From: an uncultured Candidatus Saccharibacteria bacterium
GTDB taxonomy: Bacteria > Patescibacteriota > Minisyncoccia > Phycocordibacterales > UBA918
DNA: 64,000 bases
Reading direction: 5' to 3'
Assembly: GCA_964618165.1 (NCBI GenBank)
Contig: CAZTWW010000001.1
Span: forward strand, 499-64,498
Positions 1 through 32,971 of this stretch are shown in pieces. The notes beneath the pieces were generated by a model. The model searched no databases and had not been told where the DNA came from. It was given only the letters and a program-made list of their open reading frames with translations. How positions within the stretch are numbered: the first letter of the stretch is position 1; the number at the start of each line of letters is the position of its first letter. The translations under genes were made by a program, and so were the position numbers.

Positions 1-3000
1 ATCTTATCCATACTGTCAATGGTGCAAACGAGCTCATACTCTGCGGAGTTGGTGCATGTGGTGATGCGCGACTTAAGATTAAGGCTGGCTCAACGTATCA
101 ACCGCTCACAAACAGTACTATTATTAATCTCCAAAATTACGGTCGACTAGCACTTGGTACTTCGACCTTGCGTGTAGCTGGTGCCTGGCAACAGTTAGGT
201 ACGTTTGTGACTGATACATCAACGGTAGTGTTTACCGCTACGTCTACGCCGTATACGCTCCAAAATGCGACTTCGTCGTTCTTCTTCCATAACGTGACTT
301 TTGGTGAGACGAGTGGTACTGCCACCTGGACTATCGATAAACCACTAAGTATCACTGGTACACTCAGCGTGATGCAGGGAACACTGGCGCGGGGTACTTC
401 AACGATGGCTATTGGTGGAAACCTGACGCTTGGTGCTAATGGTTTTGTGACTGGTATCGCGACGACAACATTTAATGGTACAGGCAGTAATACCTGGTCT
501 GATGCCAAGGCGAGTGCTTCAAGTACAAATGTCGGAAATGTCGTTATTGATGGTACGGCAAAAACCATTACGCTTGCAGGGAACGTGGCCGCTGAGTCAG
601 TTACTATCGGTACAGATGATACGCTTAACGCTTCAGGAAGTGGTTTTAACATTAATGTTGTTCGAGCCTGGACTAATAACAATCTTTTTGTTCCGCAGAC
701 TGGTACTGTTACTTTCATTGGGACTTCAACCGGTGTCATTGCTCGTGGCACCTCACCATTCAATAATCTTACCTTTGCGGGTGTTGGAGGAAATTGGTCA
801 TTTAGTACGTCAACTTTGGCGCTCAATGGTACACTCACAATTGCGACCGGTACGGTCACTCTACCGACTGGTACTACCACCATCGCCGGCTCTTTCCTCA
901 ACACTGGCGGGTCATTCGCACATAATAATGGTGAGGTACGTATGACAAGTGCTGTCGGCGGACGTACAATCACTCAACAGGCAGGTGTATTTACTAATGC
1001 CTTCTACGACTTAGTATTTACTGGCGGTGGTACTTGGAGTTATTCAGAAAGCGCAGCTACGACAACCCGTAATATGCTGATTCAGGCTGGTACAGTTACG
1101 CTCCCAAGTGGTCAGCTCACTGTCGGAGGTGAATTTGCAGTAACGGGTTCAGGCGCCTTTGCGCATAACAACGGTGAATTAGTGCTCCTTGTTACACAAA
1201 CCAACACACTGCGTACGAATGGTTCAGCGCTTAATAATGTTCGCACTCGTGGTGTCGGTTCGGGTTCATGGTACGGCTCAGGATGGGGAAGACGACTATC
1301 AATTACTGTACAAAGTTCGCAGGTACCAACCAACCTCTCTGACTTCCCGGTATACGTCAATCTCGCAAATCTCCCTGTTGAATTCTTTAATGGCGTCAAA
1401 GCTGATGGTGGAGATATTCGCATGACGACAAGTGACGGTGTCACTGAGGTGCCAGTAGAAGTTGTGTCGCTTAATACTGGGGCGAGAACTGGTGAATTGC
1501 ACTTTAGAGCTCCTTCGCTATCATCTACGACAAACTCAGTATTCTATATCTACTACAACAATCCAGCTGCTGCGACCAATACTGCTACTTCTACGTTTGG
1601 TCGCGCGAATGTGTGGAGTAATGGTTATGAGGCGGTGTACCACTTGGATACCAATCCTGCTTCTGCGATGCTTGACAGTACCCGCAATGCACGTAACCTG
1701 ACGCAGCTTGGTGGCATGAACAGCAGTGATGTGGTGGCTGGAGCAGTTGGAAATGGTATTGATTTTGACGGCGTTGATGATCGTCTTACTAACGCTGGCT
1801 TCGCCTGGCCAAATGCCTCTAACACCGTCACTGTGACAGCCTGGAATAATGTGACAGTGGCCGAAACAAAAGCTGCAAACCTCTTTGGATTCAATGAAAG
1901 TGGTGGTCAACGGTTTGCTACGCACGGACCATGGAGTGATTCAGTTTTGTATTGGGACTTTGGTACTGCAGGAGTACCAGGACGCGTGCAGACTGCGTAT
2001 AACTCATATCGCGATAAATGGACTCATGTCGCGCTCACTTCACCCGGTAACGGTGGAGGCAACATGAACATCTACCTCGACGGTGCATTTATTGCTGGCA
2101 GCGCTGCGAGTGATCCAACTGCCACCTTAACCGGATTTTTCCTTGGTAGCTTAGGTGCTGGACAATATCACGACGGTCGTATCGACGAATTCCGTATTGC
2201 CTCAGTTGTTCGCACCGCCGGTTGGATTGCTACTGAAGAGAATAATCAATCAAGCTCAACGGCGTTCTACACCGTGAGTGGAGAGGAGACGCAACGTATT
2301 CGCACGTTTGCTGATACAAATACAACTATCCTCGGCAATGTCGTCCTTGAAAATGGCGGTGATGCTATTTTCCCAAGTGGTGTACTGTCTGTTGGAGGTT
2401 CATTTGATAATAACGCTAACTTCACCTCAAATAATGGAACGGTGCGCTTCAATTCAATCGCTGGTAGTGAAACTATCGCTGCTGGATCATCAACCTTTGC
2501 TACCCTTGAGTTTAATGCGACTAGTGGAGACTTTGCTATTACCGAGCATGCAACAGCGACGGTAGCGGTTAATCTTGTGAATGCAGCAAGCTTTACACTC
2601 AGTAGCGGACTCTCGCTCACAGCGAGTGGCACCTTTACTCAGGTTATGTCTGGTGCAAGTACTACTTGGACTGGTTCGACGCTCCGTATCCTTGGTGCTG
2701 ATCAGACAATTCACGCTAAGACATTTGGTGGCGATGTCTACGGTACACTTGAGACCAACGGTGACACGGATGTGGCGATGTGGAACAGTAGTGCTACGAG
2801 CTATGTGACCGGTAGTACCTCATCTATCTATTCTCAAGATCATGCTGGCGTAGATGGAGACCTTAATATCTATGGTAATTATGTCCGGTCTACCGGTACT
2901 GAACACTGGTCGTGGGAGACTGACTTTGATGGTGTCTCGCTCGGCGTTGGTGCTCGTCAAGTCGATGTTCGTATTGCGACTGGTTCAACTATTGGATTTG

Positions 3001-6000
3001 TAAATGCTTCGTGGTCAATCCAAGGTACAACCTCAGCTACCACGACTGTTGCCAGTATTGCTGGAGCCTTTAGCGTGTCAGCTACTAATACTACCGTGAC
3101 CGGTCGATTCTTCAGCTTTGCCAATACGGATGCAAGTGGACTCCGACTCGTTTCATCAAGTACGGTGAGTGTGCTTGATGACGGTTTCTTCACAGTTGCT
3201 CCTGGTCAGACTGGTATTACGATGGATGGTACGACGGTCGGTACTAATCCAGCCAGACAGTTCAACCGCATTGGCTTTGCCACGACCACAGCCGGGGCTG
3301 CATCAAACGTCACCTTTACTGGTACGTCTACCACATTTGTGTGGTTCAGAAATGGTTCTGGTAATCTTTACGGAGAGGCGTTTGATGCTGGTGACTTGAA
3401 TCCGGGAGCCATTCGATTCGATGATAGTTCGTACCTCATCACGGTTTCTGGTCGTGTGCTTACCAATAATGGAAGTGGGGTACAAGGTGCACCAGTCTGT
3501 AACGGCACTACCCCAAATGTTCGTATTGTGGTTAACAATGGTTCGTTTACTGCTTCAACATCATGTAATGCTACGACGGGTGCGTATACATTTAACAACG
3601 TTGCATTCGTTGGTGATCCTGTGATCTCGGTATACCTCAATACCAATGGTGGCGTGCAGGGGAGTGTGGTGACAAAGACACCAACCGCCAACATCACAAA
3701 CCTCGATCTCTACACGAATCAGGTAATGATGCGACATGAGGGGGTCGTACCAATCGCAATTGCAGATCTTGTACAGTTTAATAATGCCTCTGACACTGAT
3801 ATGGGCTTTGTGGCAACGACGTCTCCAACAACAACACTGACGGTGTCTCCAGCACGTGGTTTGTTCATCTGGGCAAGTAGCACCTTCACGCCGGGTGGTC
3901 CAGTCACGCTCGCGGGTAATGCATCGACCAGTGCCTTTGAAGGATCACTCACGCTTGCTACTTCATCTCGCTTTATTGCTGAAGGCACGCAAACTCATAC
4001 CTTGGCTGGTCGCCTGGTGCTTGGTAGTAATGCCTCTATAACCGCTGCCTCCTCTACCTTTGTCTTTAATGCAACGACTACAGGCAAGAGTATCACCGGT
4101 TCAACAACTATAAACCTCCATAATGCATCCTTTACCGGGGTTGGTGGTGCCTGGAATATTACTGCACCGATTGTATTTACTGGTGACATGACGGTTGCAA
4201 CTGGTACCGTGACTGGTACAAGTAATCTGACCCTCACCAATGGTCAGCTTACCGGTAATGGAACACTTTCACTCGGTGGAGGTACAACTACTATTGCTCG
4301 CACTAATACACTTGGCGGTACGACACCTTGGACATTTGCGAATCTCGTCCTCGGCGATGGTTTAACGGTGGGTACAACCACCCGTGCTGCCAGCGCCACG
4401 ACGACGATTAGTGGACGCTTGACCATAGCAAATGCTCATACCCTCGCTGCTACGAGTGAAGCGTACGACTTTACTGGTACCGGTACGGTATTCCAAGTAA
4501 CTGGCACTTGGCAGCCAGGTTCAAGTCTCGTCCGCTACAGTGGAGCGAATGCTAATGTGCTCGGTACGAGCTACTATGACTTGTCTATCGGTGCGCTGGT
4601 AGGAAGTTCTACATTCACTGGTACAGGCTCTGGTATCCTCGTTGGTCGCAATCTCACCGTTGGTAACGGTACCGCGAGTAGTACCTTTAACGTGACGACA
4701 AGCGACCCAGTCGTAACCGTTCTTGGTGATGTTCTCATACAAAGTTCCTCAACATTGAGTGCGAGTGATATTGCGACCACTACAATTGCCGGTAGCTATG
4801 ACAACAACGGTCGATTCTTCGGTAATGGTGGCTTGGTGACCTTTACGGGTAGTGGATCACATACCATTGCTGCAGGCAGTTCGAGCTTGAGTCGTGTCAT
4901 CGTTGACGGTACTGGCTCGTTTACGCTGCCTGAGTCTGCTACAACAACCGTCAGTCTCATTCTCCAAAATCACAGTCTCTTTACGGTGGCAACCGGCACA
5001 ACACTCGCGGTGGCTGGCACTTTTGAGAACCGCCTTGGTGGTAGTGCCACTGTCTGGTCAGGTGCACTCTTTGCGCATGGTGGAGGCTCACTTACTATCA
5101 ATCAAAAGACTACGAGTGATGTGTACAGTACCTTGCGTGTTGCCAGTACGACTCGCGTGCGTATGTGGAATAGTACGAGTACCGTATATGATGCACAAGG
5201 CGGTATCTACTCACAAGATCATGCGGGTATTGATGGAGCGTTACGTATCTACGGTAACTTTAATGAAACCAGTGCTGCCGATCATTGGAGTTTTGAAACT
5301 GACTTCGATGGTACAACTCTTGGCACTTCTACTCGTCCAGTAACCGTAGCGTTTGCAAGCAATGCAACAGCTACCTGGAGTGGCGGTAGTCTCAGTGTTA
5401 TTGGAAGCACAAGTGCCTCTACAACCTTACAAAATCAAGGTTCCGGTACGTACCGGTTGGTGATTGGTGGCACTGCTACTGTTAACTTCAACCGGGTCGT
5501 TATCCGTGACACTACAGCTGCTGGTATCACCTTCACTGGTACTCCGACCGTGACCGATTTCTCACGTACTGACCATCTCATCAGAATCAATAGTGGTACT
5601 GCATTGACCGTAGGTGGTACGGTTATCAATGCGAACGAAGCGAAAAACTTTACGAATAATGTGTTTGCGCCTGATACCGGTGTCATTGGTGCAACGAACG
5701 TTACTGCTACTGGTACTGCAGTTAGTTCTTGGAGATTTACTAATCATACCGGCTCGATATCAGGTGAAGCATTTGATGTTGATCCAGCGGGTGATCCTGG
5801 ATACATCGTTTGGGATGATTCAGCGGCGCTGATTACCGTCAGTGGTAATGTGTACAGTGATGAGGGTGTTACCGTCTCACCAGTATGTGACGGGGTGACA
5901 AATAATATCGTTCTTCGGGTTGCTGGTTTGACTTCATATAGTACCAGTTGTAACGCGAGTACCGGTGCCTACAGCATCAGTAATGTTGCCTACAGTCCAC

Positions 6001-9000
6001 TTGATAGTCTCGTGGTCTATATTGATGGCGCGACACCAAAGGGTGCTCATGTCACGAAGTCACCAATTTCTTCAATCTCTAATCTCCACATTTACCACAG
6101 TCGAGTGATTGTCCGTCATGAAAATACCGACCCAATAACGATTGCTGATATGGCAGTATGGGATAGTAGTGATGATACAGATATTCCGTTCACTGCCGTA
6201 GATGCTGGTACTGATACATTGACGCTACCAGCTGACCGTAAGCTGATGGTGTGGACCAGTAAGACCTTTGCACCAAATGGTAATGTGACGATTTCTGGTG
6301 GCGGGGCAGGGGATGCGGTTGATGGTTCGTTTGAAGCCCTCGCTAATGCCCGTTTCCGTGGCCAAAACAGTGAGACACATACGATTGCCGGAAGCTTCGT
6401 CTTTGGTGCTGGTGCTGTCTATGAGGCTAATCAAGCAACCACAACATTCACCTCAACGGCCGCCGGACGTACTATTGATGTCAACGAGTCAGCGTTCGGG
6501 AATATCGCATTCACGGGTACTGGTTCATGGTCTATGAGTGATGCCACGCTCACGACACAACGCTCATTTACCCAGTCAGCAGGAACCGTAACGTTCGGTA
6601 GCGGCACGACCACAATCGGCGCGTCGTTCAATGCAACCGGCGGAACATTTACCATGAATGGAAGTGCACTTGTCTTTACGAGTACGAGTACCGGTAATAT
6701 TGTTCGGTTTGATGACTCAACTGTTCCAACCACCACGTTCTCGGGTGCGAGCGGTGCTTGGAGTATGACTGACACGAACGCGACGACAACCGGTAGCTTC
6801 TTTATCACCAACACCGGTGCGGTGACACTACCGAGTGGTAATCTTGGTGTGGGCGGTTCATTTGTGAACGCGAGTGGTACCGTGACGCATAATACGAGTG
6901 ACATCTATTTCACTGGTGCCGGGACACTTAGTTTGCGTGCTAATGGCTCCGACCTGTTTGCGGTTCGGAAGATTGGGGCTGGCACACTAACGATGACTGA
7001 GGGTAGTGTAACGCTCCGCGATGATCTGGCGGTAGCTTCGGGTACACTCATTGCTGCTACTAATACCTTGGCTGTCGGTGGTTCATTTACGGTAACGAAC
7101 GGCTTCTTTAATAATGCGACCGGTACGGTTCTTATGAATGCCACGACTGTTGGTAAGACGATTCAGGCCAGTACCAGTCCGTTCTATAACCTTAACTTCG
7201 GTAGCGCTTCAGGTGGCTGGACTTGGCAGAGTAATGCAACGGTTACGAATAATATGACAATTACCGCTGCAAACACCTTTACGAAAGAGTCTGGTACAAC
7301 CCTTACCGTTGGTGGTGTCTTTACCAATCTTGTTGGTGGTGCGCAAACGACCTGGAGTACTACGACGCTCCGGCTTATCGCCACCGATCCGTACACCATA
7401 AATACCAAGTCTGCTGGTGGTGATGTGTATGCTACCGTTGATATTCCATCGGCCGATATTCGAGTCTGGAATAGTAGCTTCAGTACCACTACAACGGGTC
7501 TCGGTGCATCACTCTATTCACAAGACAATGCAGCGGTTGATGGTCAGTTGGCTATCTATGGTGAGTTTACCGTTGCGACAACTACTGAACACTGGAGCTT
7601 TGCAACTGATTTTGACGGCACTGCCCTCACTGGCCCAAGTCAGCGCGCCGTATCAGTACTTTTCGCCTCAAGTGCTACCACGTCGGTTATCTCCGGTACC
7701 CTCAATGTAATTGGTGGTCCGTCGGCGACAACAACTATTGGCATTATTGGTACTGGTACCCACGCCCTCGCCGTATCAGGAGGTACCTTTAACGCCCAGT
7801 TCTACCGCTTCAATGCCCTTAATGCTACCGGCCTTTCATTCACTGGTTCTCCAACGATTACTACGTTGAGTAACGGTTTCTATCAGCTTGCGGTGAATGG
7901 CGGTACGCTTGTCCGCGTCACCGATACGGCACTTACCGCCAATGCATCAAAGATATTTACGGCAGTAGGATTTAATGCGACGAGTGGCTTGAGTGGTGTA
8001 AACGTAGCCCTCGTGGGTAGTACCAGTAATGCGTGGCGATTTAGTGGCTCGTACGGCACGCTCAGTGGTGAGGCGTTTGACGATGATGGTGTTGATGCCT
8101 GCGGCGCGATTCGCTTTGATAATAGTCTTTGTCTCCTTACCTCACAAACAGCTTTCCGTTGGCGCAGTGATGATGGGCTTGAAGGGGCGCCAAGTAGTGA
8201 ATGGTTTGATGCCTCATTTGACTACCGACAGCGTGTCCGTGTCCAAAACACAACCGGTACATCATTTAGCACAACCACACTGAAGATAGTTGTTCCGTAT
8301 GATAGTGCGATGCAATCGGACTTTGATGATATTCGCTTTACACTCGGCAATGGCTTGACCTTGGCTGATCACTGGCGAGAGCGGTTTACCGCGAGTACCG
8401 AAGCTACATTCTGGGTGGAGGTACCAAGCTTTGCGGCCTCATCTTACACGACTGTGTTTATGTATTACGGTAGTTCAACTGCAAGTTCAGCCAGCAATGC
8501 GAGTGCAAGCTTCGTCTTCGTGGATGACTTTGAAGACAATAACATTACAGAATATTCGGGCGATACTTCATTATTCCAGACTGATACGGCACCGGTATTT
8601 GCTGGTACGTATGCGCTTGAGGCATCAAATAAAACTGGTCGTACGACTGATGGTATTTACCGAACTGGTTCACTCGTCTCTCAGGGTCAAATCGTCCGCT
8701 ATATGCAGTACGTTGATACCACATCAGGTAGTACTGACGAGGGTTGTGTCATGTTTGGTGTTCAGGGTAACCAAAACCAGAATTATGGTGTGTGTCTTGA
8801 ACTCTTTGGAGTTGACCGTATCGCATTATCACGTGACGTTGACGATAATGATGTGTCAGGTACTGTCCTGGCGAGTACCACAGTGTCGTACACTACAGGT
8901 TGGTATGAGGTACAAATAGATTGGCAAACTAATAATCGTATTGATGTCTATCTCTATAATCCTTCAGGCGCATTGGTGGCTACTACCTCGGCCACCGACA

Positions 9001-10406
9001 GTAATTACACGAGCGGTGGTGTTGGGTATACGTTCTGGATCCAGAACGGTGCTTGGGATAGCTACACCGTGCGTGGTCGGGCGCCAGTGACACCGCCTGT
9101 CTTCTTTGGGGCCAAGCAGACGGATGGTGGCGCCACTTGGTTAGCAGCTCAAAATGCATCAGGTAGTGGTCTTCCTGGTTCAACTCGTCGACTCCGTATC
9201 GGTATCGAGAACTCAGGTCTCACGGTAACGGGTCAGACCTACCGTCTCCAGTATGCAGCGAAGGGTAGTGCGCTCACGTGTGAAGCTGTCAGTAGTGGTA
9301 GTTACACAGCGGTGCCAAATCAGGCGTCGTGTGGCTCGTCACCGGTTTGTATGCAGACATCAACGAATGTGACTGATGGTGGAGCGACTACAGACCTATT
9401 ATCTGGCATGAATGGGATGTACAGTGCTGGACAGACAGTTGAGAGTCCATCAAACATGACTGGTGGTATTACTATCAATCAAAATTACTACACCGAACTT
9501 GAATATGTAATTACTGCTACCGTGAATGCTTCTGACGCGTACTGCTTTAGAGTCGTGAACGACACTACACCGCTTGACTTCTATGCTGAAGTAGCAGAGC
9601 TTGGTCTAACCTTCGATCCAACTTTTGGACCAGTTGCCCTTAACAATGGTATGCCGATTGTATTAACTCCTGGAGCAACCACGACCGTGTATGCTACCGG
9701 TACAGTCACAGACTTCAATGGTGTGGCAGATCTCGTGGCGGGTACTTCAACCATCTACCGCAGCGGTGCTGGTGCGGCATGTACACCTGATAACAATAAT
9801 TGTTATGTTTCAACAGTCTCAAATGGTGGTTGTAACTTCACAAATTGTAGTGGTTCAACATGTACGCTTGAATGTCGAGCGGATATCTTCTTCCATGCTG
9901 ATCCAACCGACGACGGGGCGTATGCTGGGGAAGAGTGGCTTGCGTACCTTGAGGTGAATGACGTGAGTGGTGGGTATGACTTCGCGTCAGCGCTTGGAGT
10001 GGAACTACTCACATTGCGAGCCTTGACGGTCGATAATGGGATTAACTACGGTGCGCTTGAGCCAGCTAACAACACTGGTGCTTACAACGCAACGACAACG
10101 ATTGCTAACACTGGTAATGTAGCATTTGACATTGAAGTGGCTGGTACTGACCTCAGTGACGGTAGTTCATCGGTCATTCCTGCTACGGAGCAACGATTTG
10201 CAACTTCAACGTTCAACTATGCAGCCTGTGTCAGTTGTGCATCACTTTCAAGTACAACGCCGGTTGAACTAGCGGTCAACCTCGCAAAGCCAACAGCGCC
10301 TTCACCATTACCAGAAACGCCAATCTATTGGGGTATCGCGGTACCGCTCGGTATACGTAGTGCACCGCACTCTGGTATCAACGTCTTTACTCCAATTTCG
10401 CCGTAA
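1..10406 (+). CDS. Giant Thr/Ser-rich cell-surface protein, 5'-partial (at least 3,412 aa). It has beta-helix-like repeats, two DUF2341-like + LamG-like modules, CnaB/CarboxypepD_reg-like modules and a C-terminal WxL-like domain.
   Basis: The frame stays open from nt 3 to the listed start at 168 (a TTG) with no in-frame stop, so the gene continues upstream of the window. Residues are dominated by T/S/G/N with repeated 'NNGE...VGG.F' beta-helix-like units. A DUF2341-like segment 'GWGRRLSITVQSS..DFPVYVNL..GGDIRMT..VFYIYYNNPAA' is followed by a LamG-like segment ending 'GRIDEFRIASVVRTAGW'. The C-terminus is shared with three other proteins in the window. Stop TAA at 10404-10406. Confidence 0.9.
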   Translation, partial: LIHTVNGANELILCGVGACGDARLKIKAGSTYQPLTNSTIINLQNYGRLALGTSTLRVAGAWQQLGTFVTDTSTVVFTATSTPYTLQNATSSFFFHNVTFGETSGTATWTIDKPLSITGTLSVMQGTLARGTSTMAIGGNLTLGANGFVTGIATTTFNGTGSNTWSDAKASASSTNVGNVVIDGTAKTITLAGNVAAESVTIGTDDTLNASGSGFNINVVRAWTNNNLFVPQTGTVTFIGTSTGVIARGTSPFNNLTFAGVGGNWSFSTSTLALNGTLTIATGTVTLPTGTTTIAGSFLNTGGSFAHNNGEVRMTSAVGGRTITQQAGVFTNAFYDLVFTGGGTWSYSESAATTTRNMLIQAGTVTLPSGQLTVGGEFAVTGSGAFAHNNGELVLLVTQTNTLRTNGSALNNVRTRGVGSGSWYGSGWGRRLSITVQSSQVPTNLSDFPVYVNLANLPVEFFNGVKADGGDIRMTTSDGVTEVPVEVVSLNTGARTGELHFRAPSLSSTTNSVFYIYYNNPAAATNTATSTFGRANVWSNGYEAVYHLDTNPASAMLDSTRNARNLTQLGGMNSSDVVAGAVGNGIDFDGVDDRLTNAGFAWPNASNTVTVTAWNNVTVAETKAANLFGFNESGGQRFATHGPWSDSVLYWDFGTAGVPGRVQTAYNSYRDKWTHVALTSPGNGGGNMNIYLDGAFIAGSAASDPTATLTGFFLGSLGAGQYHDGRIDEFRIASVVRTAGWIATEENNQSSSTAFYTVSGEETQRIRTFADTNTTILGNVVLENGGDAIFPSGVLSVGGSFDNNANFTSNNGTVRFNSIAGSETIAAGSSTFATLEFNATSGDFAITEHATATVAVNLVNAASFTLSSGLSLTASGTFTQVMSGASTTWTGSTLRILGADQTIHAKTFGGDVYGTLETNGDTDVAMWNSSATSYVTGSTSSIYSQDHAGVDGDLNIYGNYVRSTGTEHWSWETDFDGVSLGVGARQVDVRIATGSTIGFVNASWSIQGTTSATTTVASIAGAFSVSATNTTVTGRFFSFANTDASGLRLVSSSTVSVLDDGFFTVAPGQTGITMDGTTVGTNPARQFNRIGFATTTAGAASNVTFTGTSTTFVWFRNGSGNLYGEAFDAGDLNPGAIRFDDSSYLITVSGRVLTNNGSGVQGAPVCNGTTPNVRIVVNNGSFTASTSCNATTGAYTFNNVAFVGDPVISVYLNTNGGVQGSVVTKTPTANITNLDLYTNQVMMRHEGVVPIAIADLVQFNNASDTDMGFVATTSPTTTLTVSPARGLFIWASSTFTPGGPVTLAGNASTSAFEGSLTLATSSRFIAEGTQTHTLAGRLVLGSNASITAASSTFVFNATTTGKSITGSTTINLHNASFTGVGGAWNITAPIVFTGDMTVATGTVTGTSNLTLTNGQLTGNGTLSLGGGTTTIARTNTLGGTTPWTFANLVLGDGLTVGTTTRAASATTTISGRLTIANAHTLAATSEAYDFTGTGTVFQVTGTWQPGSSLVRYSGANANVLGTSYYDLSIGALVGSSTFTGTGSGILVGRNLTVGNGTASSTFNVTTSDPVVTVLGDVLIQSSSTLSASDIATTTIAGSYDNNGRFFGNGGLVTFTGSGSHTIAAGSSSLSRVIVDGTGSFTLPESATTTVSLILQNHSLFTVATGTTLAVAGTFENRLGGSATVWSGALFAHGGGSLTINQKTTSDVYSTLRVASTTRVRMWNSTSTVYDAQGGIYSQDHAGIDGALRIYGNFNETSAADHWSFETDFDGTTLGTSTRPVTVAFASNATATWSGGSLSVIGSTSASTTLQNQGSGTYRLVIGGTATVNFNRVVIRDTTAAGITFTGTPTVTDFSRTDHLIRINSGTALTVGGTVINANEAKNFTNNVFAPDTGVIGATNVTATGTAVSSWRFTNHTGSISGEAFDVDPAGDPGYIVWDDSAALITVSGNVYSDEGVTVSPVCDGVTNNIVLRVAGLTSYSTSCNASTGAYSISNVAYSPLDSLVVYIDGATPKGAHVTKSPISSISNLHIYHSRVIVRHENTDPITIADMAVWDSSDDTDIPFTAVDAGTDTLTLPADRKLMVWTSKTFAPNGNVTISGGGAGDAVDGSFEALANARFRGQNSETHTIAGSFVFGAGAVYEANQATTTFTSTAAGRTIDVNESAFGNIAFTGTGSWSMSDATLTTQRSFTQSAGTVTFGSGTTTIGASFNATGGTFTMNGSALVFTSTSTGNIVRFDDSTVPTTTFSGASGAWSMTDTNATTTGSFFITNTGAVTLPSGNLGVGGSFVNASGTVTHNTSDIYFTGAGTLSLRANGSDLFAVRKIGAGTLTMTEGSVTLRDDLAVASGTLIAATNTLAVGGSFTVTNGFFNNATGTVLMNATTVGKTIQASTSPFYNLNFGSASGGWTWQSNATVTNNMTITAANTFTKESGTTLTVGGVFTNLVGGAQTTWSTTTLRLIATDPYTINTKSAGGDVYATVDIPSADIRVWNSSFSTTTTGLGASLYSQDNAAVDGQLAIYGEFTVATTTEHWSFATDFDGTALTGPSQRAVSVLFASSATTSVISGTLNVIGGPSATTTIGIIGTGTHALAVSGGTFNAQFYRFNALNATGLSFTGSPTITTLSNGFYQLAVNGGTLVRVTDTALTANASKIFTAVGFNATSGLSGVNVALVGSTSNAWRFSGSYGTLSGEAFDDDGVDACGAIRFDNSLCLLTSQTAFRWRSDDGLEGAPSSEWFDASFDYRQRVRVQNTTGTSFSTTTLKIVVPYDSAMQSDFDDIRFTLGNGLTLADHWRERFTASTEATFWVEVPSFAASSYTTVFMYYGSSTASSASNASASFVFVDDFEDNNITEYSGDTSLFQTDTAPVFAGTYALEASNKTGRTTDGIYRTGSLVSQGQIVRYMQYVDTTSGSTDEGCVMFGVQGNQNQNYGVCLELFGVDRIALSRDVDDNDVSGTVLASTTVSYTTGWYEVQIDWQTNNRIDVYLYNPSGALVATTSATDSNYTSGGVGYTFWIQNGAWDSYTVRGRAPVTPPVFFGAKQTDGGATWLAAQNASGSGLPGSTRRLRIGIENSGLTVTGQTYRLQYAAKGSALTCEAVSSGSYTAVPNQASCGSSPVCMQTSTNVTDGGATTDLLSGMNGMYSAGQTVESPSNMTGGITINQNYYTELEYVITATVNASDAYCFRVVNDTTPLDFYAEVAELGLTFDPTFGPVALNNGMPIVLTPGATTTVYATGTVTDFNGVADLVAGTSTIYRSGAGAACTPDNNNCYVSTVSNGGCNFTNCSGSTCTLECRADIFFHADPTDDGAYAGEEWLAYLEVNDVSGGYDFASALGVELLTLRALTVDNGINYGALEPANNTGAYNATTTIANTGNVAFDIEVAGTDLSDGSSSVIPATEQRFATSTFNYAACVSCASLSSTTPVELAVNLAKPTAPSPLPETPIYWGIAVPLGIRSAPHSGINVFTPISP
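1264..2270 (+). other. DUF2341-like domain followed by LamG/concanavalin A-like lectin domain (copy 1) inside the giant protein
   Basis: The translated motif is W.GSGWGRRLSI....DFPVYVNL....DGGDIRMT....YIYYNNP, then LDSTRNARNLTQ...GIDFDGVDDRLT...IYLDG...DGRIDEFRIAS. The order matches the known DUF2341 - LamG_3 architecture. Confidence 0.55.
2830..7620 (+). repeat. Three tandem super-repeats of about 2.35 kb (about 790 aa) within the giant ORF
   Basis: The near-identical motif 'HAG[VI]DG.L.IYGN...EHWS[WF]ETDFDG' recurs at nt ~2833, ~5218 and ~7510. CnaB-like segments 'GEAFD..D...I.[FW]DDS..LITVSG.V....GV...PVC.G.T.N' recur at ~3360, ~5760 and ~8070. Confidence 0.7.
8150..9100 (+). other. Second DUF2341-like + LamG-like module inside the giant protein
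   Basis: WRSDDG...WFDASFDYRQRVRVQNTTG...DFDDIRFT...TVFMYYGSS, then FVDDFEDNN...VFAGTYALEA...WYEVQIDW (a jelly-roll-like segment). Confidence 0.45.
9960..10403 (+). other. Shared WxL-like C-terminal domain (copy in the giant protein)
   Basis: The segment ...INYGALEPANNTG...NTGNVAFDIEVAG...IPATEQRFATSTFNYAA...ETPIYWGIAVPLG...SGINVFTPISP aligns with the C-termini of the ORFs ending at 16585, 20845 and 32970. Confidence 0.6.
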
Positions 10407-10415
10407 GAGAGTGCT

Positions 10416-11903
10416 ATGATTACGTTACTTATGCGACATGTACTTGTGTTATTGCTGTTCGTTCTTGGTGGACTGACACTGACTTCGGTCGTATTTGCAC
10501 AATCTGATGACACGCGTGCACCAGAAATTACGGGAGTGACCATCGCCTCAACCACCGAGACTTCAGTGACGATCACCTGGAAAACCAACGAAAACGCTGA
10601 TTCAGCAGTCAATTACAGCCTTGACCCAAATCTCGGCGTGGTACGTGTGCCAGTGGCAAATCGTACGACCCATTCCGTCACATTGGATAACCTCGAGCCG
10701 GGAAGGACGTACTACTTCCGTGTCGTCTCAGCTGATGCCGAGGGTAACCAAGGAATCTCAGCAGATTATAAAATTGATCTTGAAAGTGAAGCGACGAGCG
10801 AAAATAGTGGGGAAGGTACTGGTGTCGGACCAGGTGAGGTGCCACAAACACCCCAAGAAATCATTGAGCAAATTCAAGAAATTAATAATCCGCAACAACT
10901 TCAAGAGATTCTTAATGAGACCGTAAAGGCGATTCAGGGTATTACTGAGGATTTGACCATTGTCGGTCCGCCAACCGTTGTGCCGGAGACAACCTCAGCC
11001 CTGGTCTCATGGAGTACTGACCGACCAGCTAGTTCAGAGGTGCGATTCTCTAAAACTAATGGTTTTGATGGTACTAATTATGAATTTTCTCAATCATCCA
11101 CCGACGGTTCAGTTACTGACCACGAAATTCGTCTCATCGGCCTTGAGCCATTTACTGAGTATAGTTTTCAGGTACGTTCAACAGATGAGTATCAGATAAC
11201 TGGTGAAAGTCGTAACTTTACCTTCCGCACTAAAGCATCGCTTCCTGACATTCGAAATCTCCGTATCGTGAAGGTGGAGGAAAACGCAGCGACACTTGCC
11301 TGGGAAACGACGGTACCAGCCAAAGCGCTCATCGAATATCAGGATCTGACCACTGGTGGTCAAAACTCAGTCGGCCGCCCAACGCTCGCTACAACACACC
11401 AAATGCGCCTCTCAGACCTGACGCTAGGAACACGCTATGTTGCGTTTGTAATTGCTGAAAACTCTGGCGGGGACCGTGTTCGGAGTCAGCCGGTTCAATT
11501 CATTACGGTCCGTGATAATGCACCGCCACTTATCTCAAACGTGACAAACGAATCAACTATTTTCCCTGGTGGTGAATCGCGTATTCAGACAATTGTTGAG
11601 TGGAATACCGACGAACCAGCATCTTGTACGATGACCTATCGTGAAGGTGTAGCTGGTGGTGTTGATCCGGTTGTGCTTGAGAAAGAGGTGGTTGAGTACA
11701 ACACGAATCATGTTGAGGTAATTATCGACTTTGCTCCCGCGACTGTATACCAGTTTTGGCTTAATTGTACTGATGAAGCCGGCAATACTGTCCAGTCTGA
11801 GAACTTCGTACTCTTTACCCCAATTCAAGAAAAAAACATTATCGACTTGATCTTGGAGAACTTTGAGTCGACGTTTGGTTGGGTTAAAAACATCACAAAC
11901 TAG
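10416..11903 (+). CDS. Secreted protein with four fibronectin type III-like repeats (495 aa)
   Basis: N-terminal signal peptide LLLFVLGGLTLTSVVFA. Repeated units of the form 'P.I..V.....T.T.A.I.W.T...A.S.V.Y......Y.......H.V.L..L.P.T.Y.FRV.S.D..GN'. An acidic Q/E-rich linker lies between repeats 2 and 3. Confidence 0.8.
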   Translation: MITLLMRHVLVLLLFVLGGLTLTSVVFAQSDDTRAPEITGVTIASTTETSVTITWKTNENADSAVNYSLDPNLGVVRVPVANRTTHSVTLDNLEPGRTYYFRVVSADAEGNQGISADYKIDLESEATSENSGEGTGVGPGEVPQTPQEIIEQIQEINNPQQLQEILNETVKAIQGITEDLTIVGPPTVVPETTSALVSWSTDRPASSEVRFSKTNGFDGTNYEFSQSSTDGSVTDHEIRLIGLEPFTEYSFQVRSTDEYQITGESRNFTFRTKASLPDIRNLRIVKVEENAATLAWETTVPAKALIEYQDLTTGGQNSVGRPTLATTHQMRLSDLTLGTRYVAFVIAENSGGDRVRSQPVQFITVRDNAPPLISNVTNESTIFPGGESRIQTIVEWNTDEPASCTMTYREGVAGGVDPVVLEKEVVEYNTNHVEVIIDFAPATVYQFWLNCTDEAGNTVQSENFVLFTPIQEKNIIDLILENFESTFGWVKNITN

Positions 11904-11922
11904 AACTATTTCACTGACACAT

Positions 11923-11959
11923 TTCTTTGTTGTGCTTTAAAAATTTTGTTCACCGTACA
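11923..11959 (+). repeat. Conserved post-gene element TTCTTTGTTGT-N-GTTCACCGTACA (copy 1)
   Basis: An element of about 38 nt lies 20 nt after the stop of the Fn3 gene. A near-identical copy is at 18764-18802, after the dockerin gene. Confidence 0.6.
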
Positions 11960-12116
11960 ACATGTACGACTTACAAAATTTTTCTTGCATGCCTCGAACT
12001 GCATCCAGTGTAAAAGTTCTAGATGGTAGTTGTCAAAGGTGTAAACACAAGCATGGCGTAGTTTTGTATGTGGACTACACTCCAAAGTATTCACGAAGTA
12101 ATGCCATAATACAGAC

Positions 12117-13439
12117 ATGGCAAAGCCTCTCATTGTGTGCCGTGATTTGTCGATTATTTATAATAAAGGCAAATCCAATGAATTTCGTGCGCTCCAAAAC
12201 GTAAACACCGACATCTATGAAGGTGAGTATATTATTCTGTTTGGTGCATCTGGGTCGGGCAAGTCAACACTCATGTATTCGATTCAAGGATCACTCCCGC
12301 CGGGCGAGGGGACGCTCCTTATTCGTGGTGACGATATTTACTCGTATCCACCGAGTGAACGAGTGTACTTCCAGCGGTACGTGATGGGTATTATCTTCCA
12401 ATCCTTTAACCTGATTGGCTCACTCTCGGTGCTCGATAATGTCGCGCTCCCGATGATTTTTTGTAATGCTGACAAACAAACGCGCGATCGTCGCGCACAG
12501 TCACTCCTTGATCGCTTCGGCGTGGGGCATGTCTCTCATAAGATCCCAGCGATGCTCTCCGGTGGCCAGCAACAGCGTGTCTCGGTAGCACGCTCTATGG
12601 TGAATGATCCGAAGATTCTTCTTGCAGACGAGCCAACCGGTAACCTTGACTCCGTTTCTACCCAGCAGGTGATGGACAAAATTGACGAAATTAACACGTT
12701 CGATAGACGGACTATTATTATGGTATCGCACAACGCGGCTCATTTGTCATACGCACATCGCGTATATTACCTCAAAGATGGGGCGGTCGTGCGTGAAGTG
12801 GTGAATCCGCAACGCAAGCAGATTAAACCAGTCCGTGAAGGTGAGACCATTGTAACCGAGTTAGAGCAGCTCGCGCGCCTGTTTCCGTACGACTCAGTTG
12901 ATACGCTGCGTATCAAGAGTATGGTGAATTACTTAACTCAAGATTATACCTTTGACCAAATTCAGCGCCTTGAGCGTGCCATTGGCTTCTTTATCAAGGG
13001 TAAGATTGACCGTGATGCATTTATAAACGCGCTCGTCCTTCCGCTCGAGCGCGGGGGAGTAGAAATAGACGAAAATACCGCGCGTGAGATGGCGAAGCGC
13101 ACTGAGCGCATGATTCTCCAGTCTGATGACATCAGACGTTTTCGAGCAAAAAAAGACAATGACGGGGTCTTCTTTAGTCAGCATAAGCTCGCTGAGCGAC
13201 TTCGTGATCACCTCCTTGAGGTATATCGCCTCAAGCTCTCAAAAGAGCAAGATAATAATCTTGTAGAACTGGTTGCAGACCGTGTGACGGGTGTGACTGA
13301 TAGTGCGGAGTTTAATGTCCGACTCATGAACGGGGTTCGCAGTGGCGGCTTGGCTCTTACCGAAGGCGAAGCAGATGATATGACAAGATACTTTGAAAAG
13401 CTGATTGCCCAAGGGGTAGACGTCAGTTATAAAAATTAG
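12117..13439 (+). CDS. ABC transporter ATP-binding protein (MacB/LolD-type NBD) with a C-terminal extension of about 200 aa of unknown function
   Basis: Walker [11 protein letters not shown]-loop, ABC signature [14 protein letters not shown], Walker B LLADEPT and H-loop VSHN are all present. The ABC domain is about 230 aa of the 440 aa total. Confidence 0.9.
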
Positions 13440-13442
13440 TGT

Positions 13443-14651
13443 ATGCGTGTCCAGGATCTTGCTCAGCTTTCAACTCGAATGTTTAAGACGAACCCGCTTC
13501 GTACCTGGCTTACTATTCTTGGTATGGGAGTCGGGACGGGTGCGGTAGTTATTCTCGTCGGGCTTGGATTCGGGCTTCAGCAGATCATTCTTGAGCAGAT
13601 TGTGTTCGGTGAGACACTCCTCTCACTTGGTGTATCAGCCACCGGCGCGCAAAATCTCCGCCTTACTACCGAGACCGTCACGCAATTTGAAGAAATGCCA
13701 GAGGTTCTCGACGCTGCTCCGCTGGCACGCTTCCCGGCCCTCGTAACCTATAAGGGGCTGACTGGTAACGTGTTTATTCAAGGAGTAGAACCACCATACC
13801 TTCGGTATGCTGGTGTTTCCGCGACTGCTGGTGAGGTATTTACCGATGTTGATGCAGCTGATACCAGCAGTGTAATGCTGTCGCCGGCGGTATTAAAGCT
13901 CTTCGGGATTGAAGACGCAGAGAGTTTTGTGGGGGAGAAGGTGTCATTTCGTATACTCATTCCGGCAAATGATGGTACCGGCAACAACAACGAGGTGATT
14001 ATCGATAAAGAGTATACCGTTCGGGGTATCACGAAGGAGGAAGGTGTCCTTAATGCCATGATGATGCTCCCTGAACTCCGTAATTATGTTGGTATTGAGG
14101 AATTTGAGCGTATTCAGGTCCGTGTCGATACGAATGAAAATCTACCGATTGTCGAGACAAAGCTTATTGAGGAAGGGTACCGCGTGACTGCGCTCTCAAA
14201 GACTGTTGAACAGGCGTCAAAGATTTTCCAGGGTATTCAAGCAGTTTTGGCGACATTTGGTGGTATTGCCTTAGTGGTGTCGGCGATTGGTATGTTTAAC
14301 ACGATGACGGTGACACTCCTTGAGCGTACCAAAGAGATCGGTATTATGCGTACTATTGGTGCTTCTCCGAACGATGTAAAGTATCTCTTCGTGTCTGAGT
14401 CGGTAGTGGTAGGCTTTTTGGGTGGGGTGAGTGGGATAGTTATGGGGGTAGGACTTGGACTCACTATCAATCTTTTTTTGAATATTGTGGCGGGGCAGTT
14501 CGGTGGGCAAGCGGTAAAGCTCTTTTCATTCCCACTTGGGTTCTTGCTCTTCATTGCCCTCTTCTCAGCGGCGGTGGGGTACTTGACCGGTATCTTCCCA
14601 GCTCGTCGGGCCGCCAAGCTCAACCCGCTTGATGCGATTCGCTACGAATAA
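13443..14651 (+). CDS. ABC transporter permease, FtsX/MacB-like (402 aa)
   Basis: Starts 4 nt after the ATPase stop. It has an N-terminal TM helix, an extracytoplasmic domain of about 230 aa and three C-terminal TM helices, which is the FtsX/MacB topology. Confidence 0.8.
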   Translation: MRVQDLAQLSTRMFKTNPLRTWLTILGMGVGTGAVVILVGLGFGLQQIILEQIVFGETLLSLGVSATGAQNLRLTTETVTQFEEMPEVLDAAPLARFPALVTYKGLTGNVFIQGVEPPYLRYAGVSATAGEVFTDVDAADTSSVMLSPAVLKLFGIEDAESFVGEKVSFRILIPANDGTGNNNEVIIDKEYTVRGITKEEGVLNAMMMLPELRNYVGIEEFERIQVRVDTNENLPIVETKLIEEGYRVTALSKTVEQASKIFQGIQAVLATFGGIALVVSAIGMFNTMTVTLLERTKEIGIMRTIGASPNDVKYLFVSESVVVGFLGGVSGIVMGVGLGLTINLFLNIVAGQFGGQAVKLFSFPLGFLLFIALFSAAVGYLTGIFPARRAAKLNPLDAIRYE

Positions 14652-14710: not shown

Positions 14711-16585
14711 ATGTTGTACAACAAAAATAATCTACCGCGGTATGTAGAGACCGCCGGTAAAATCACCATTTTATCAGCCTTAACTGGAGTATTGATTTTC
14801 ACCTTCATCTTTATTCTTAACATCGGTAAAACCGAGCTCCAGAAAGCCGAAGCGACATCAACCGCGACGACTACTCTCACTGTTCTTAACACGCCCCCAC
14901 AGTGGGAGATTGGTGAAGAAGGTCGTGAAGAGTTTGGTTCTTCCACGACCACACCAACTAACTCAGGTGATGTTGTCTCTTGGATTGGTCGAGCCACTGA
15001 CTCAAACGGCGCACCTTACTTCCTTATCATTTGTAGTAATAGTGCGACACCAACAGCTCAGCAGTCCACGACAACACTCGGAACCGCAGCGCCGATTTGT
15101 TCTGGCGGCGGTATCCGCTGGGCCGTTTCAACTTCTACCGTGAGTGGTGCACAGGCGCGTGCTGCTACAACCACGTTTGAAGGTGGTAACTTCCAGGAAT
15201 CTAATACCTGGTACGCCTGGGTGTGTGACGACGATCCGGTGAGTCCAAAGTGTAGTACAACATTCTCTCAGGGAACCAACGCCACGAACTCAAGTCCTTT
15301 TAACGTAAATCGTAGACCAATCTTCACCACTTTTGGTAATAATGGACCTGTTAATCCTGGCGGTACCATTACCTTCAATGCTACGGCAACCGATCCAGAC
15401 ATTGTAGACTTTGAAGATAATATTTACCTTGTTGTCTGTAGCCTTCCTTCATACAGTACAACCACGAACTCATGTGGTGCAGGAGACTTCATTGCCTCAA
15501 GTTCTCTCGGCGCCCTTCAAAATCCTACCGCTGCAACGAGTCTCGTAGCTATCATTCAGGACACGAGTTACAACGCCTATGGTTATGTCTATGACGAGCA
15601 TGGACACGAGGCACTGCTTGGAGCCCAGGGTACCAATACACCGTTTGTAGTTAATAACGTAGCACCAACAGTTTCGGGAGGTACTATTACACTTAATGGC
15701 GGTCTTGATATTACCCTCACAACACCTGGGGCGGAAACAACTGGCTTTACGCTCGAGTTCACTATCGCTGATGCAAATAGTTGTGATGCGGTCGGTGGTG
15801 GGCCTGCGGATGAGATTATTCGTCCGGTCGTCTCGATATTTAGAAGCTCACTAGGTACAACAACCTGTAACGGAGCTTTAGCTTACGATCCGAATCGCTG
15901 TTATGTAAGTGATGTTCCTACTTCTGTCTGGAATCTCGCATGTACAGCCTCTACCACCTCGTGTACCGGAGCGACTGATGATACGATTCAATATAATTGT
16001 ACGTTCCCACTTTGGTTCCTCGCTGATCCTACTGATGCAAGTTCACCATTTTCAGCTGAAGACTGGCGTGCTGGTGTAGCTGGAGTTGATGACGACCTTT
16101 CGACCGGTACAATGGCAACGTCGACGAGCGGACGAGAGCTCTTCAGTTTTGTAGCAATTGACTTGTTAACGCAAAACATTGCCTATACTGACCTTGAGCC
16201 TGGAACTGAGATGGCTAACTTGACTTCGTCTTCAACGCTTCGTGTGCTCGGTAACACCGGTATCAACCAGCTCCTCGGCGGAGATTCAATGTGTGACACC
16301 TACAGCATCAGTAATCCATGTCCTGTTTCGGGTACGTCAACTATTCCTCAAAGTGAGCAACGCTACGCAACTACAGCAGTAGCGTACGCAGCTGGTACAC
16401 CGCTTCAGCCTACTTCTACACCAGCACTGTTTGACATCCGTATCCCAAAACCAACTTCGACTTCAAGTCCGACACAGGATGAAACGTTCTGGGGTATCCG
16501 AGTTCCAGGTTCAATTACACGCGCGGGAGTATATACAGGTCGAAACACCTTTATGGGTGCGGTATCACCATCAGGAAGCTGGTAA
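14711..16585 (+). CDS. Secreted Thr/Ser-rich surface protein (624 aa) with the shared WxL-like C-terminal domain
   Basis: SD AAGAGG precedes the ATG. N-terminal signal anchor ILSALTGVLIFTFIFIL. The C-terminus '...IPQSEQRYATTAVAYAAG...ETFWGIRVPGS...GVYTGRNTFMGAVSP' is homologous to the C-termini of the 3,412-aa, 385-aa and 2,048-aa proteins. Confidence 0.8.
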   Translation: MLYNKNNLPRYVETAGKITILSALTGVLIFTFIFILNIGKTELQKAEATSTATTTLTVLNTPPQWEIGEEGREEFGSSTTTPTNSGDVVSWIGRATDSNGAPYFLIICSNSATPTAQQSTTTLGTAAPICSGGGIRWAVSTSTVSGAQARAATTTFEGGNFQESNTWYAWVCDDDPVSPKCSTTFSQGTNATNSSPFNVNRRPIFTTFGNNGPVNPGGTITFNATATDPDIVDFEDNIYLVVCSLPSYSTTTNSCGAGDFIASSSLGALQNPTAATSLVAIIQDTSYNAYGYVYDEHGHEALLGAQGTNTPFVVNNVAPTVSGGTITLNGGLDITLTTPGAETTGFTLEFTIADANSCDAVGGGPADEIIRPVVSIFRSSLGTTTCNGALAYDPNRCYVSDVPTSVWNLACTASTTSCTGATDDTIQYNCTFPLWFLADPTDASSPFSAEDWRAGVAGVDDDLSTGTMATSTSGRELFSFVAIDLLTQNIAYTDLEPGTEMANLTSSSTLRVLGNTGINQLLGGDSMCDTYSISNPCPVSGTSTIPQSEQRYATTAVAYAAGTPLQPTSTPALFDIRIPKPTSTSSPTQDETFWGIRVPGSITRAGVYTGRNTFMGAVSPSGSW

Positions 16586-16677: not shown

Positions 16678-17631
16678 ATGAAGGGAATTCTTCAAACGTC
16701 GCTACTACGTTCTTTGTGTTTGGTTGTTTTGTCGACAGTGGTCTTTTGGCCTGCCACAACTTTTGCCAGCTTTGGTATTACGCCTCCTTATGTACGCAAT
16801 ACGAGCCTGACCCGCAACTCTACCTACGAGCAGCAAATTCTTTTAGTACGGGGGAATCCTAACGAAGACCTGCGCGCAGAAATTACTATTGATGCACCAG
16901 AGATTCAGGACTGGATTGAGGTGGTAGAAGGAAACAATATCTCACTCCCTCGTGGTGAACAGAAGGTGCCAATGACCGTTCGTATTAAGGTCCCGGCAGA
17001 CGCAGACTTTGCAGACTACATGGGTAAGATCCGTATCCGTACGCTTCCAACTGATGAGGCTGCGGCTGAGGGTGTGGTGAGTATTAGTCTTGGTGCGCAG
17101 GTTGATATTGATCTATCAGTTATCGATAAGGTAATCGAAGATTTTCGAGTTCGAAAAATTACTATTAACGATCTCAATGAAGGTCGTAAGCTCGGCTGGC
17201 TCTATTTCCCGGGTAAGATTAATTTCGGCATGCTGATTGAGAATACCGGTAATGTTGACATCGCGCCGTCTAAGGTTGAGTTCCGCATCTATGACCGAGC
17301 TGGAGCCGTTCTCCTTGAGACCACCGAGCATACCGGCCGCATCAAAAAGATTGCTCCGTATGCGATTGAAGAGGTGACTGCTAATCTGCCCACTCGTCTT
17401 CCGGCCGGTAGTTACATTGCTCGTTACTCAATCTTTAATGGAGATGAGGTTAAGCAGGAAGGTGAGCTTAATTTGAGTATTCTTCCATACGGTACACTCC
17501 AGACTGCCGGGTACGGCTTCATGGGGCTCTCAATTGCGCATAAAGTATCTATCCTATTACCAATCTTTGCGCTTCTCATAACTATTCTGTACATTATCCA
17601 TAATCGACGCAGTCGTAAGACGCGAGCGTAG
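16678..17631 (+). CDS. DUF916-like cell-surface protein (317 aa) with N-terminal signal peptide and C-terminal TM anchor plus basic tail (paralog 1)
   Basis: SD GAGGGA precedes the ATG. Signal peptide LCLVVLSTVVFWPATTFA. The C-terminal TM helix ILLPIFALLITILYII is followed by HNRRSRKTRA. It is paralogous to the ORFs at 32972 and 33933. The architecture matches DUF916/WxL-interacting proteins. Confidence 0.7.
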   Translation: MKGILQTSLLRSLCLVVLSTVVFWPATTFASFGITPPYVRNTSLTRNSTYEQQILLVRGNPNEDLRAEITIDAPEIQDWIEVVEGNNISLPRGEQKVPMTVRIKVPADADFADYMGKIRIRTLPTDEAAAEGVVSISLGAQVDIDLSVIDKVIEDFRVRKITINDLNEGRKLGWLYFPGKINFGMLIENTGNVDIAPSKVEFRIYDRAGAVLLETTEHTGRIKKIAPYAIEEVTANLPTRLPAGSYIARYSIFNGDEVKQEGELNLSILPYGTLQTAGYGFMGLSIAHKVSILLPIFALLITILYIIHNRRSRKTRA

Positions 17632-20845: not shown

Positions 20846-20881
20846 TGAATATTGGTCCAAGCTTGGAGTAATACGCAAAAA

Positions 20882-20910
20882 TTCCCCCCACCACGGGGGA
20901 TTTTTGTTTG
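20882..20910 (+). terminator. Intrinsic terminator after the 385-aa gene
   Basis: Hairpin TCCCCCCA-cca-CGGGGGA followed by TTTTTGTTTG. Confidence 0.8.
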
Positions 20911-20955
20911 TGTAAAACAAGTCAATTCTTGTGCCTGTGCTTGTATACTAATCAT

Positions 20956-32970: not shown

Positions 32971-32971
32971 T

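Follow-up and report, generated by a model that had tools for sequence, protein, structure and literature searches.

A predicted giant beta-solenoid surface protein of Patescibacteria whose Laminin_G_3 domain varies independently of its scaffold

Results and Discussion

Beyond a few cultured Saccharibacteria, little is known of how ultrasmall Patescibacteria recognise partner cells and keep hold of them. The locus described here, a giant gene with lectin-type domains, lies in 64,000 nucleotides (nt) of DNA (the window, by which the whole of this stretch is meant) from an uncultured Candidatus Saccharibacteria bacterium (assembly GCA_964618165.1, contig CAZTWW010000001.1, positions 499 to 64,498). 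The gene opens the window on the plus strand (3..10406), and its product carries a Laminin_G_3 domain that, judged by sequence comparison, is replaced wholesale between otherwise collinear orthologues, as an exchangeable cassette. With moderate confidence, we read the complete protein of ~7,450 amino acids (aa) as an N-terminally anchored, adhesin-like beta-solenoid fibre with swappable lectin heads. Both this length and the cassette behaviour go beyond the account in an earlier note on the same DNA, which had been made from the sequence alone.

The giant gene and its domains

Frame +3 contains no stop codon between nt 3 and the one that ends the gene at 10404-10406; it comprises 3,467 codons, no stop lies upstream of them, and the open reading frame (ORF) listed from its first TTG (168..10406) has 3,412 aa, the minimum size stated in the earlier note. 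The same note held that the protein is cut at the window edge, and it was right: four sibling contigs from NCBI metagenomes, found via the exact downstream fibronectin type III (fn3) protein, are 98.6-99.9% identical to the window in DNA, and on two of the four, including one at 99.9% identity, the gene is called as a 7,453-aa product, so the window carries slightly less than the C-terminal half. The complete 7,453-aa sequence belongs to contig JACCEA012059687.1 (GCA_013573075.1). A lookup of the exact truncated product returned no record. Together, T, G, S and A make up 47% of the 3,467-aa part (whose numbering is used throughout), which contains only 22 cysteines. The possibility of an artefact or pseudogene was rejected, as the frame is intact in the window and, in most of 22 other species, is not interrupted within the sequence fetched. 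Strain differences cluster in the giant gene, with 85 of 261 mismatches to contig L002 falling at nt 7500-8500 (super-repeat C and the second DUF2341 domain) and 12 of 22 mismatches to sibling contig L001 at nt 8500-9000 (the second concanavalin A (ConA)-like domain); this clustering suggests local recombination or gene conversion.

The earlier note had proposed a DUF2341 + LamG_3 pairing and had named a Pfam scan among its checks; the scan found DUF2341 twice and Laminin_G_3 once. Over the whole 3,467-aa chain only DUF2341 was detected, in two stretches, and Laminin_G_3 was missed at that scale. In the segment aa 420-760, Laminin_G_3 (PF13385, gathering cut-off 27.6 bits) scored 51.6 bits (E = 1.5e-13) at aa 605-743, matching profile positions 15-151 of 151, and the first DUF2341 domain (PF10102, cut-off 23.4 bits) scored 23.1 bits, just below its cut-off. 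The second DUF2341 domain exceeded the cut-off at 60.2-69.4 bits (60.2 in the segment aa 2730-3080), and profiles built from orthologues of the two DUF2341 domains aligned in hhalign with 99.8% probability (E = 7e-28), so the two are homologous. The pairing is genuine in the first tandem, which consists of DUF2341 at aa 424-535 (1272..1607, plus strand, like all features of the gene) and Laminin_G_3 at aa 536-745 (1608..2237) and contains the motifs WGRRLSI (aa 428), DFPVYV (aa 447), GGDIR (aa 469), YIYYNN (aa 515) and GRIDEFRIAS (aa 725). The second DUF2341 domain occupies aa 2735-2844 (8205..8534). The tandems had been described as embedded in the super-repeats; instead they flank the array, one before repeat A and one after repeat C. 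Pfam segment scans recognised no further domains elsewhere in the 3,467-aa part, RTX / HemolysinCabind repeats included, NCBIfam matched no segment, and PDB sequence searches found no relative of the super-repeat, the DUF2341-LamG unit or the second ConA-like domain.

The Laminin_G_3 domain as an exchangeable cassette

Fourteen orthologues were aligned over the window's length. All regions are 46-80% identical to the window with the exception of the Laminin_G_3 domain, whose identity is bimodal and incongruent with the scaffold: scaffold identity is 55-70% in all 14 orthologues, and Laminin_G_3 identity is 74-84% in four of them (L007, L011, L020 and L024), 55% in L010 and only 25-34% in the remaining nine. 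Across pairs of sequences, Laminin_G_3 identity and scaffold identity are uncorrelated (r = -0.02). The two extremes are illustrated by L005 and L011, whose scaffolds are 84% identical and whose Laminin_G_3 domains are 36% identical, and by the window and L007, for which the figures are 60% and 84%. When L005 and L011 are compared over their full length, the only segments below 40% identity are their two Laminin_G_3 domains, the second of which sits in an extra DUF2341-LamG tandem upstream of the window's portion. The swapped core spans approximately aa 555-735.

At a 50% identity cut-off, 31 copies of Laminin_G_3 fall into nine groups; the two positions are of one type in many genomes and of different types in others. 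The slot behind DUF2341 is filled in wider relatives by other types of Laminin_G_3, by pentraxin-like or DUF1080-like domains, or by unrecognised sequence, and the number of DUF2341 copies ranges from 1 to 8. The DUF2341 copy nearest the C-terminus is present in nearly all of the giants and is read as the start of a C-terminal DUF2341 + ConA-like block. A search for the window's Laminin_G_3 type elsewhere returned one weak match, at 30% identity. Hypervariation by a diversity-generating retroelement was set aside, as whole domains are replaced and no reverse transcriptase was present among the scanned ORFs, although no dedicated search for one was made.

Because the Laminin_G_3 type varies independently of the rest of the protein, it is a concrete candidate specificity determinant, and a swapped domain of sugar-binding type would be a candidate for what decides to which surface the cell sticks. 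By analogy with the receptor-binding domains of phages, a tentative extension, which we rate as possible rather than probable, is that the slot after DUF2341 is a dedicated specificity cassette and that the clade changes its partner or host range by replacing the ConA-like lectin domain. If this is true, the lectin type would predict the host of uncultured lineages.

Super-repeats and their predicted fold

Self-comparison bears out the periodicity of ~2.35 kb that the earlier note had predicted. In chunked self-BLAST, aa 768-1440 match aa 1565-2215 at an offset of 796 aa (2,388 nt) with 41-42% identity and E-values down to 6e-54, and aa 1564-1963 match aa 2329-2733 at an offset of 766 aa (2,298 nt) with 36-42% identity. 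Together with the alignment, these matches delimit super-repeats A (aa 753-1549, 2259..4649), B (aa 1550-2313, 4650..6941, ~796 aa from A) and C (aa 2314-2733, 6942..8201, ~766 aa from B), with identities of 35-42% overall. Three copies of about 790 aa each had been claimed; there are three genuine copies, and the third is of half length, since in the three-way alignment it ends after ~420 aa, directly past GEAFD...IRFD, where the second DUF2341 domain starts. The most conserved block, IYSQDHAGVDG...EHWSWETDFDG, lies at 2825..2933, with copies at 5204-5312 and 7511-7619. The signature HAG[VI]DG...EHWS[WF]ETDFDG, placed by the earlier note at nt 2833, 5218 and 7510, therefore recurs at positions close to those given, and its wording fails for the third copy, which reads NAAVDG...EHWSFATDFDG. 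In DNA, a single 54-nt block is conserved between the copies (at nt 2825, 5204 and 7511), which indicates that the triplication is old, and GEAFD motifs occur at the same three positions in orthologues of other species, so that it predates the divergence of these species.

Upstream of the first tandem, aa 1-423 (3..1271) form a beta-strand repeat region rich in T, G, S and A, for which self-comparison gives a weak period of ~80 aa. Its part at aa 250-423 is similar to aa 2125-2328 (about 40% identity, self-BLAST), and analysis of short periods in the beta-strand regions produced only weak peaks, near 39 and 80 aa.

Super-repeat A was modelled with AlphaFold from an alignment of 34 sequences, with a mean predicted local distance difference test score (pLDDT) of 84.6 and a predicted template-modelling score (pTM) of 0.75. 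The model contains many short beta-strands, broken by a seven-strand sandwich at aa 1137-1227, and the super-repeat is thus predicted to consist of a beta-solenoid, then a small beta-sandwich, then more beta-solenoid. Pfam, NCBIfam and the PDB hold no relative of this ~790-aa beta-solenoid module, which is covered by no protein-family or structure library. The small sandwich (3411..3683, with a conserved cysteine pair at 1166/1188) has an equivalent in repeat B at ~5799-6071. It corresponds to the interspersed CnaB/CarboxypepD_reg-like modules of the earlier note, which do recur, in the form LITVSG...PVC...TGAY, twice and not three times. Among 28 copies of the module, Pfam gave two CarboxypepD_reg matches and one CarbopepD_reg_2 match (best E = 0.016). 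Short Foldseek matches to the repeat model are prealbumin-like or CnaB-like sandwiches, and the local matches are 4yok (probability 0.97), UafA and the FctB pilin, all non-significant at E of at least 0.17. With family matches in only 3 of 28 copies, the CnaB/CarboxypepD_reg label is plausible at the level of the fold and unproven, and membership of the family is not established.

In a Foldseek search of super-repeat A against the PDB, nothing fell below E = 0.1 and TM-scores were at most 0.15. The long weak matches, none of them significant, are all beta-helix proteins, comprising phage tailspikes, pectate and alginate lyases, Ag43, RsaA and Fap2. It is here that a role as a surface polysaccharide depolymerase or lytic factor has to be weighed, in which the solenoids would be catalytic, in the manner of tailspikes or pectate lyases, and the ConA-like domains would serve as carbohydrate-binding modules aimed at the envelope of prey or host. 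Tailspike depolymerases and pectate or alginate lyases are the top weak neighbours, the repeat contains a near-invariant acidic motif (D..DG...W...DFDG..R), and a link to the degradation of cell walls has been drawn for giant genes of predatory bacteria (bioRxiv 10.1101/2023.11.21.568195). However, all of these fold matches have E-values of at least 0.1, no lyase or hydrolase family was found in Pfam or NCBIfam, no PDB relative was found by sequence, and the beta-helix is equally typical of the non-enzymatic adhesins Ag43 and Fap2 in the same match list. We therefore regard catalysis by the solenoids as decidedly unlikely.

The C-terminal block

The earlier note had placed a second, more divergent DUF2341-LamG tandem at 8150-9100. 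Its DUF2341 domain and the fold class of its partner were correctly recognised, and its assignment to Laminin_G_3 was not. At aa 2850-3030 Pfam matched no Laminin_G_3 at E-values up to 10; the sole Pfam match of the segment was SO2946-like_C at 21.7 bits, below the 27-bit cut-off, and hhalign against a LamG profile of 31 sequences gave a probability of 0.9%. The domain that follows the second DUF2341 (8550..9092) has a concanavalin A-like lectin/glucanase fold, a jelly-roll beta-sandwich (CBM66 / L-type lectin / DUF1080-like) that superposes on known members, and is 58-75% identical among orthologues. This fold match without a sequence relation to Laminin_G_3 makes the second tandem a DUF2341 domain joined to a ConA-like lectin fold of another family. 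It is followed by three predicted immunoglobulin (Ig)-like beta-sandwich domains with conserved cysteines (9099..10403), which contain neither a C-terminal sorting signal nor a transmembrane segment. The model of the C-terminal 738 aa (pLDDT 91.7) is a chain of beta-sandwiches, and outside the ConA-like domain its Foldseek matches are multi-Ig chains.

Full-length relatives and membrane anchoring

With one genome scanned per species, orthologues were found in assemblies of 22 Patescibacteria species (labelled Paceibacteria, Kaiserbacteria, Parcubacteria or 'Saccharibacteria'), at 56-70% identity over the window's first 420 aa. Lengths were read within fetched loci of 21 kb only: in 18 of the 22 species the ORF is open across all of the upstream sequence fetched, and in 13 the frame is open through the 10-kb upstream flank and ends ~10.4 kb downstream, which corresponds to 6,670-7,020 aa within these loci. 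Word-indexed homologue searches returned no relative longer than ~1,335 aa, and full-length relatives surfaced only when repeat A was searched exhaustively against 1.84 billion cluster representatives. This retrieved 492 proteins at E <= 1e-3 and 191 at E <= 1e-30. Many of the matching representatives have 5,000-7,700 aa; among the matches listed, 39 of those newly retrieved by this search are longer than 4,000 aa, and the longest has 7,696 aa. One representative, P0118 (7,456 aa), is collinear with the window at 36-48% identity, the window's aa 1 being its aa 3986. The family is a conserved and easily recognised giant surface protein of Paceibacteria and Kaiserbacteria, and the source of the window is read as a Patescibacterium of this type.

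The N-terminal half, upstream of the window's portion, was seen in relatives (L005 at 2-10000, L031 at 7922-12121 and P0118 at aa 1-3985). A third DUF2341-LamG tandem occurs there, which shares 54-60% identity with that of the window, together with another duplication of ~730 aa, an Ig_Rha78A_N-like domain and weak TNF/C1q/BclA-like matches; in P0118, an acidic low-complexity region directly follows the membrane anchor.

A scan of metagenomes that used the upstream end of the orthologues as its seed recovered the true N-termini of four loci. All four open with a few basic residues, followed by about 20 hydrophobic residues and by the conserved DRT..E.L.IIPG..S.SW, and P0118 starts alike. With a 19-residue Kyte-Doolittle window and a transmembrane cut-off of 1.6, all five have one N-terminal peak of 1.9-2.5, and P0118 has essentially no other segment of this grade, its next window, at aa 4345, scoring 1.61 and thus just above the cut-off. 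The maximum in the window's portion is 1.39, and its C-terminus (...GINVFTPISP) lacks LPXTG and a hydrophobic tail. From these sequences we infer Sec-dependent export with an N-terminal signal anchor, a conclusion read from relatives and not from the window's own protein; the single transmembrane helix at the N-terminus of the orthologues, with no further hydrophobic segment, supports the surface location assumed in the earlier note. A giant adhesin of the RTX/type I-secreted or sortase-anchored kind was dismissed, the protein having no RTX (repeats-in-toxin) repeats, no LPXTG and no C-terminal hydrophobic segment.

The N-termini also bear on the proposal that proteins of this kind are tip adhesins of type IV pili. 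By analogy with PilY1, the DUF2341 proteins encoded in type IV pilus loci of archaea have been suggested to act as tip adhesins (PMC4858521), and the PilY1-like annotation has been repeated for giants of Patescibacteria (PMC11809585). However, no pilus families (pilin, PilB/PilT/PilC, prepilin peptidase) were present among the scanned ORFs of the window or of the 8 kb upstream of the orthologues, the N-termini of the relatives lack the G/F-x-x-x-E prepilin motif, and a membrane-anchored chain of 7,450 aa is hard to place at a pilus tip. With both pilus genes and pilin-like N-termini absent, this is the least supported of the alternatives, and we consider it highly improbable.

Possible function of the protein

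In the adhesin-like reading, the N-terminal helix would hold the protein in the membrane after Sec export, and the beta-solenoid super-repeats would act as a long rigid stalk that keeps the distal domains at a distance from the cell. The lectin-type domains might then bind glycans of a partner (host) cell or of a polymer surface, with the swappable Laminin_G_3 setting the specificity and the conserved C-terminal block of ConA-like and Ig-like domains contributing a constant function. Past the N-terminal helix, the relatives are all-beta and cysteine-poor, with conserved cysteine pairs. The context of the gene agrees with this reading, its conserved neighbours encoding surface proteins that bear cohesin, dockerin and fn3 domains.

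The gene neighbourhood suggests another option, namely that the protein is a structural envelope component, either surface-layer (S-layer)-like or part of a cohesin-dockerin scaffold, in which the solenoids would build a lattice or a coat of fibres and the lectins would bind the cell's own wall polymers. A cohesin+Big_13 gene lies directly upstream of the giant gene in all seven loci for which upstream sequence is available, dockerin genes are nearby, further cohesin/dockerin genes occur in the window at 17.6-25.1 kb, and the S-layer protein RsaA and an S-layer chain appear among the weak fold matches of the repeat and of the Ig chain, respectively. However, these fold matches are non-significant, the giant protein itself has no cohesin or dockerin domain by Pfam, and a domain that binds the cell's own polymers would not be expected to be replaced between orthologues that are 84% identical. 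An envelope role is, on balance, unlikely.

Several points weigh against the adhesin-like fibre that we favour. Lectin-fold domains are also found in enzymes and structural proteins, and because no structural neighbour of the beta-solenoid reaches significance (best Foldseek E = 0.1), a role as passive stalk is only assumed for it. Regarding the cassette, DNA identity shows no sharp breakpoints around it; the flanks are 60-75% identical with gradual transitions, and cassettes of the same type are only modestly more alike than their flanks. The exchanges are consequently old and no recent transfer can be claimed, and lateral exchange is indistinguishable from ancient polymorphism with lineage sorting. 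Finally, some Parcubacteria have been proposed to be free-living (PMC12625730), which leaves room for binding partners other than host cells.

Relation to known giant surface proteins

Proteins of Patescibacteria that exceed 4,000 aa and carry DUF2341 have been described as likely adhesion or host-interaction factors (PMC11809585), and surface proteins of very large size that bear ConA and fn3 domains are known from other members of the phylum (PMC13059738). The present protein, with 7,453 aa and DUF2341 twice in the window, comes from a Patescibacteria genome and shares the phylum, the size class, the DUF2341 domain and the inferred role in adhesion or host interaction with the first of these sets (giants with DUF2341 and/or FhaB). 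However, PMC11809585 only counts such proteins, and the protein described here lacks an FhaB domain by Pfam and has a ~790-aa beta-solenoid super-repeat, a C-terminal DUF2341 + ConA-like + Ig block and an exchangeable Laminin_G_3 slot. It is an uncharacterised new family within an already known kind of giant surface protein.

Like the autotransporters Ag43 and Fap2 and the FhaB-type exoproteins, it would present binding domains on a long beta-solenoid stalk, and these proteins are among its weak, non-significant fold neighbours; in contrast to them, it has no autotransporter beta-barrel or TPS (two-partner secretion) domain, and it belongs to a monoderm-type cell and would be held by an N-terminal transmembrane anchor. 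Compared to phage receptor-binding proteins and tail fibres that exchange their distal binding domain in modular fashion, it is no virion protein and is encoded by a cellular chromosomal gene in conserved synteny, and its exchange is old and without sharp breakpoints. The fn3/ConA/integrin-like giants of Absconditicoccaceae (PMC13059738) and the LamG giants of DPANN archaea (PMC10266531) are also oversized, lectin-bearing surface proteins of ultrasmall symbionts with a presumed function in host recognition, whereas they come from other lineages and have unrelated architectures, and no protease or nuclease domains were found in the present protein.

Gene neighbourhood and other features of the window

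Nearly all sizeable ORFs of the window lie on the plus strand. The giant gene is followed by an fn3-repeat protein gene (10416..11903, plus strand) in all 19 loci of different species with downstream sequence and in the four sibling contigs, and a MacB-type ATP-binding cassette (ABC) pair comes next where the sequence allows (12117-14651 in the window). The MacB-type ATPase is ~95% identical in L008 and L016 over its first 90-130 residues, which are all that the fetched loci retain; as the giant protein is only ~60-65% identical, the pair is probably a conserved housekeeping transporter and not a dedicated partner.

Beyond the cohesin+Big_13 gene, the orthologous loci encode Hsp20 and a dockerin protein further upstream, with cohesin and dockerin genes at about 3500-7800 in L030/L031. 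In the window, cohesin/dockerin genes (with Big_13, Big_7 or DUF4215) are located at 17636-18742, 21972-23690 and 24372-25130. Cohesin/dockerin genes therefore flank the giant gene on both sides, a hint of a cohesin-dockerin surface assembly in these Patescibacteria. The window also encodes a WxLIP_PGBD+LytR_C protein, followed by the housekeeping genes UvrABC, Ddl and TGT. A second large ORF of 2,052 aa (26812-32970) has no Pfam match and overlaps an ORF at 32747-33958; further unrecognised ORFs in the neighbourhood are found at 14711-16585, 16678-17631, 19688-21975 and 25180-26757.

A tRNA-Ala gene (51564-51639) precedes a stretch of low GC content (0.395 at 54-56 kb) where GC skew swings sharply (region 51564-57000). 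One ORF on the minus strand, three small ORFs without recognised domains and a helicase gene of the Schlafen-group-3/DUF2075 type (54691-56550) lie in this stretch, which could represent a defence island or an integrated element.

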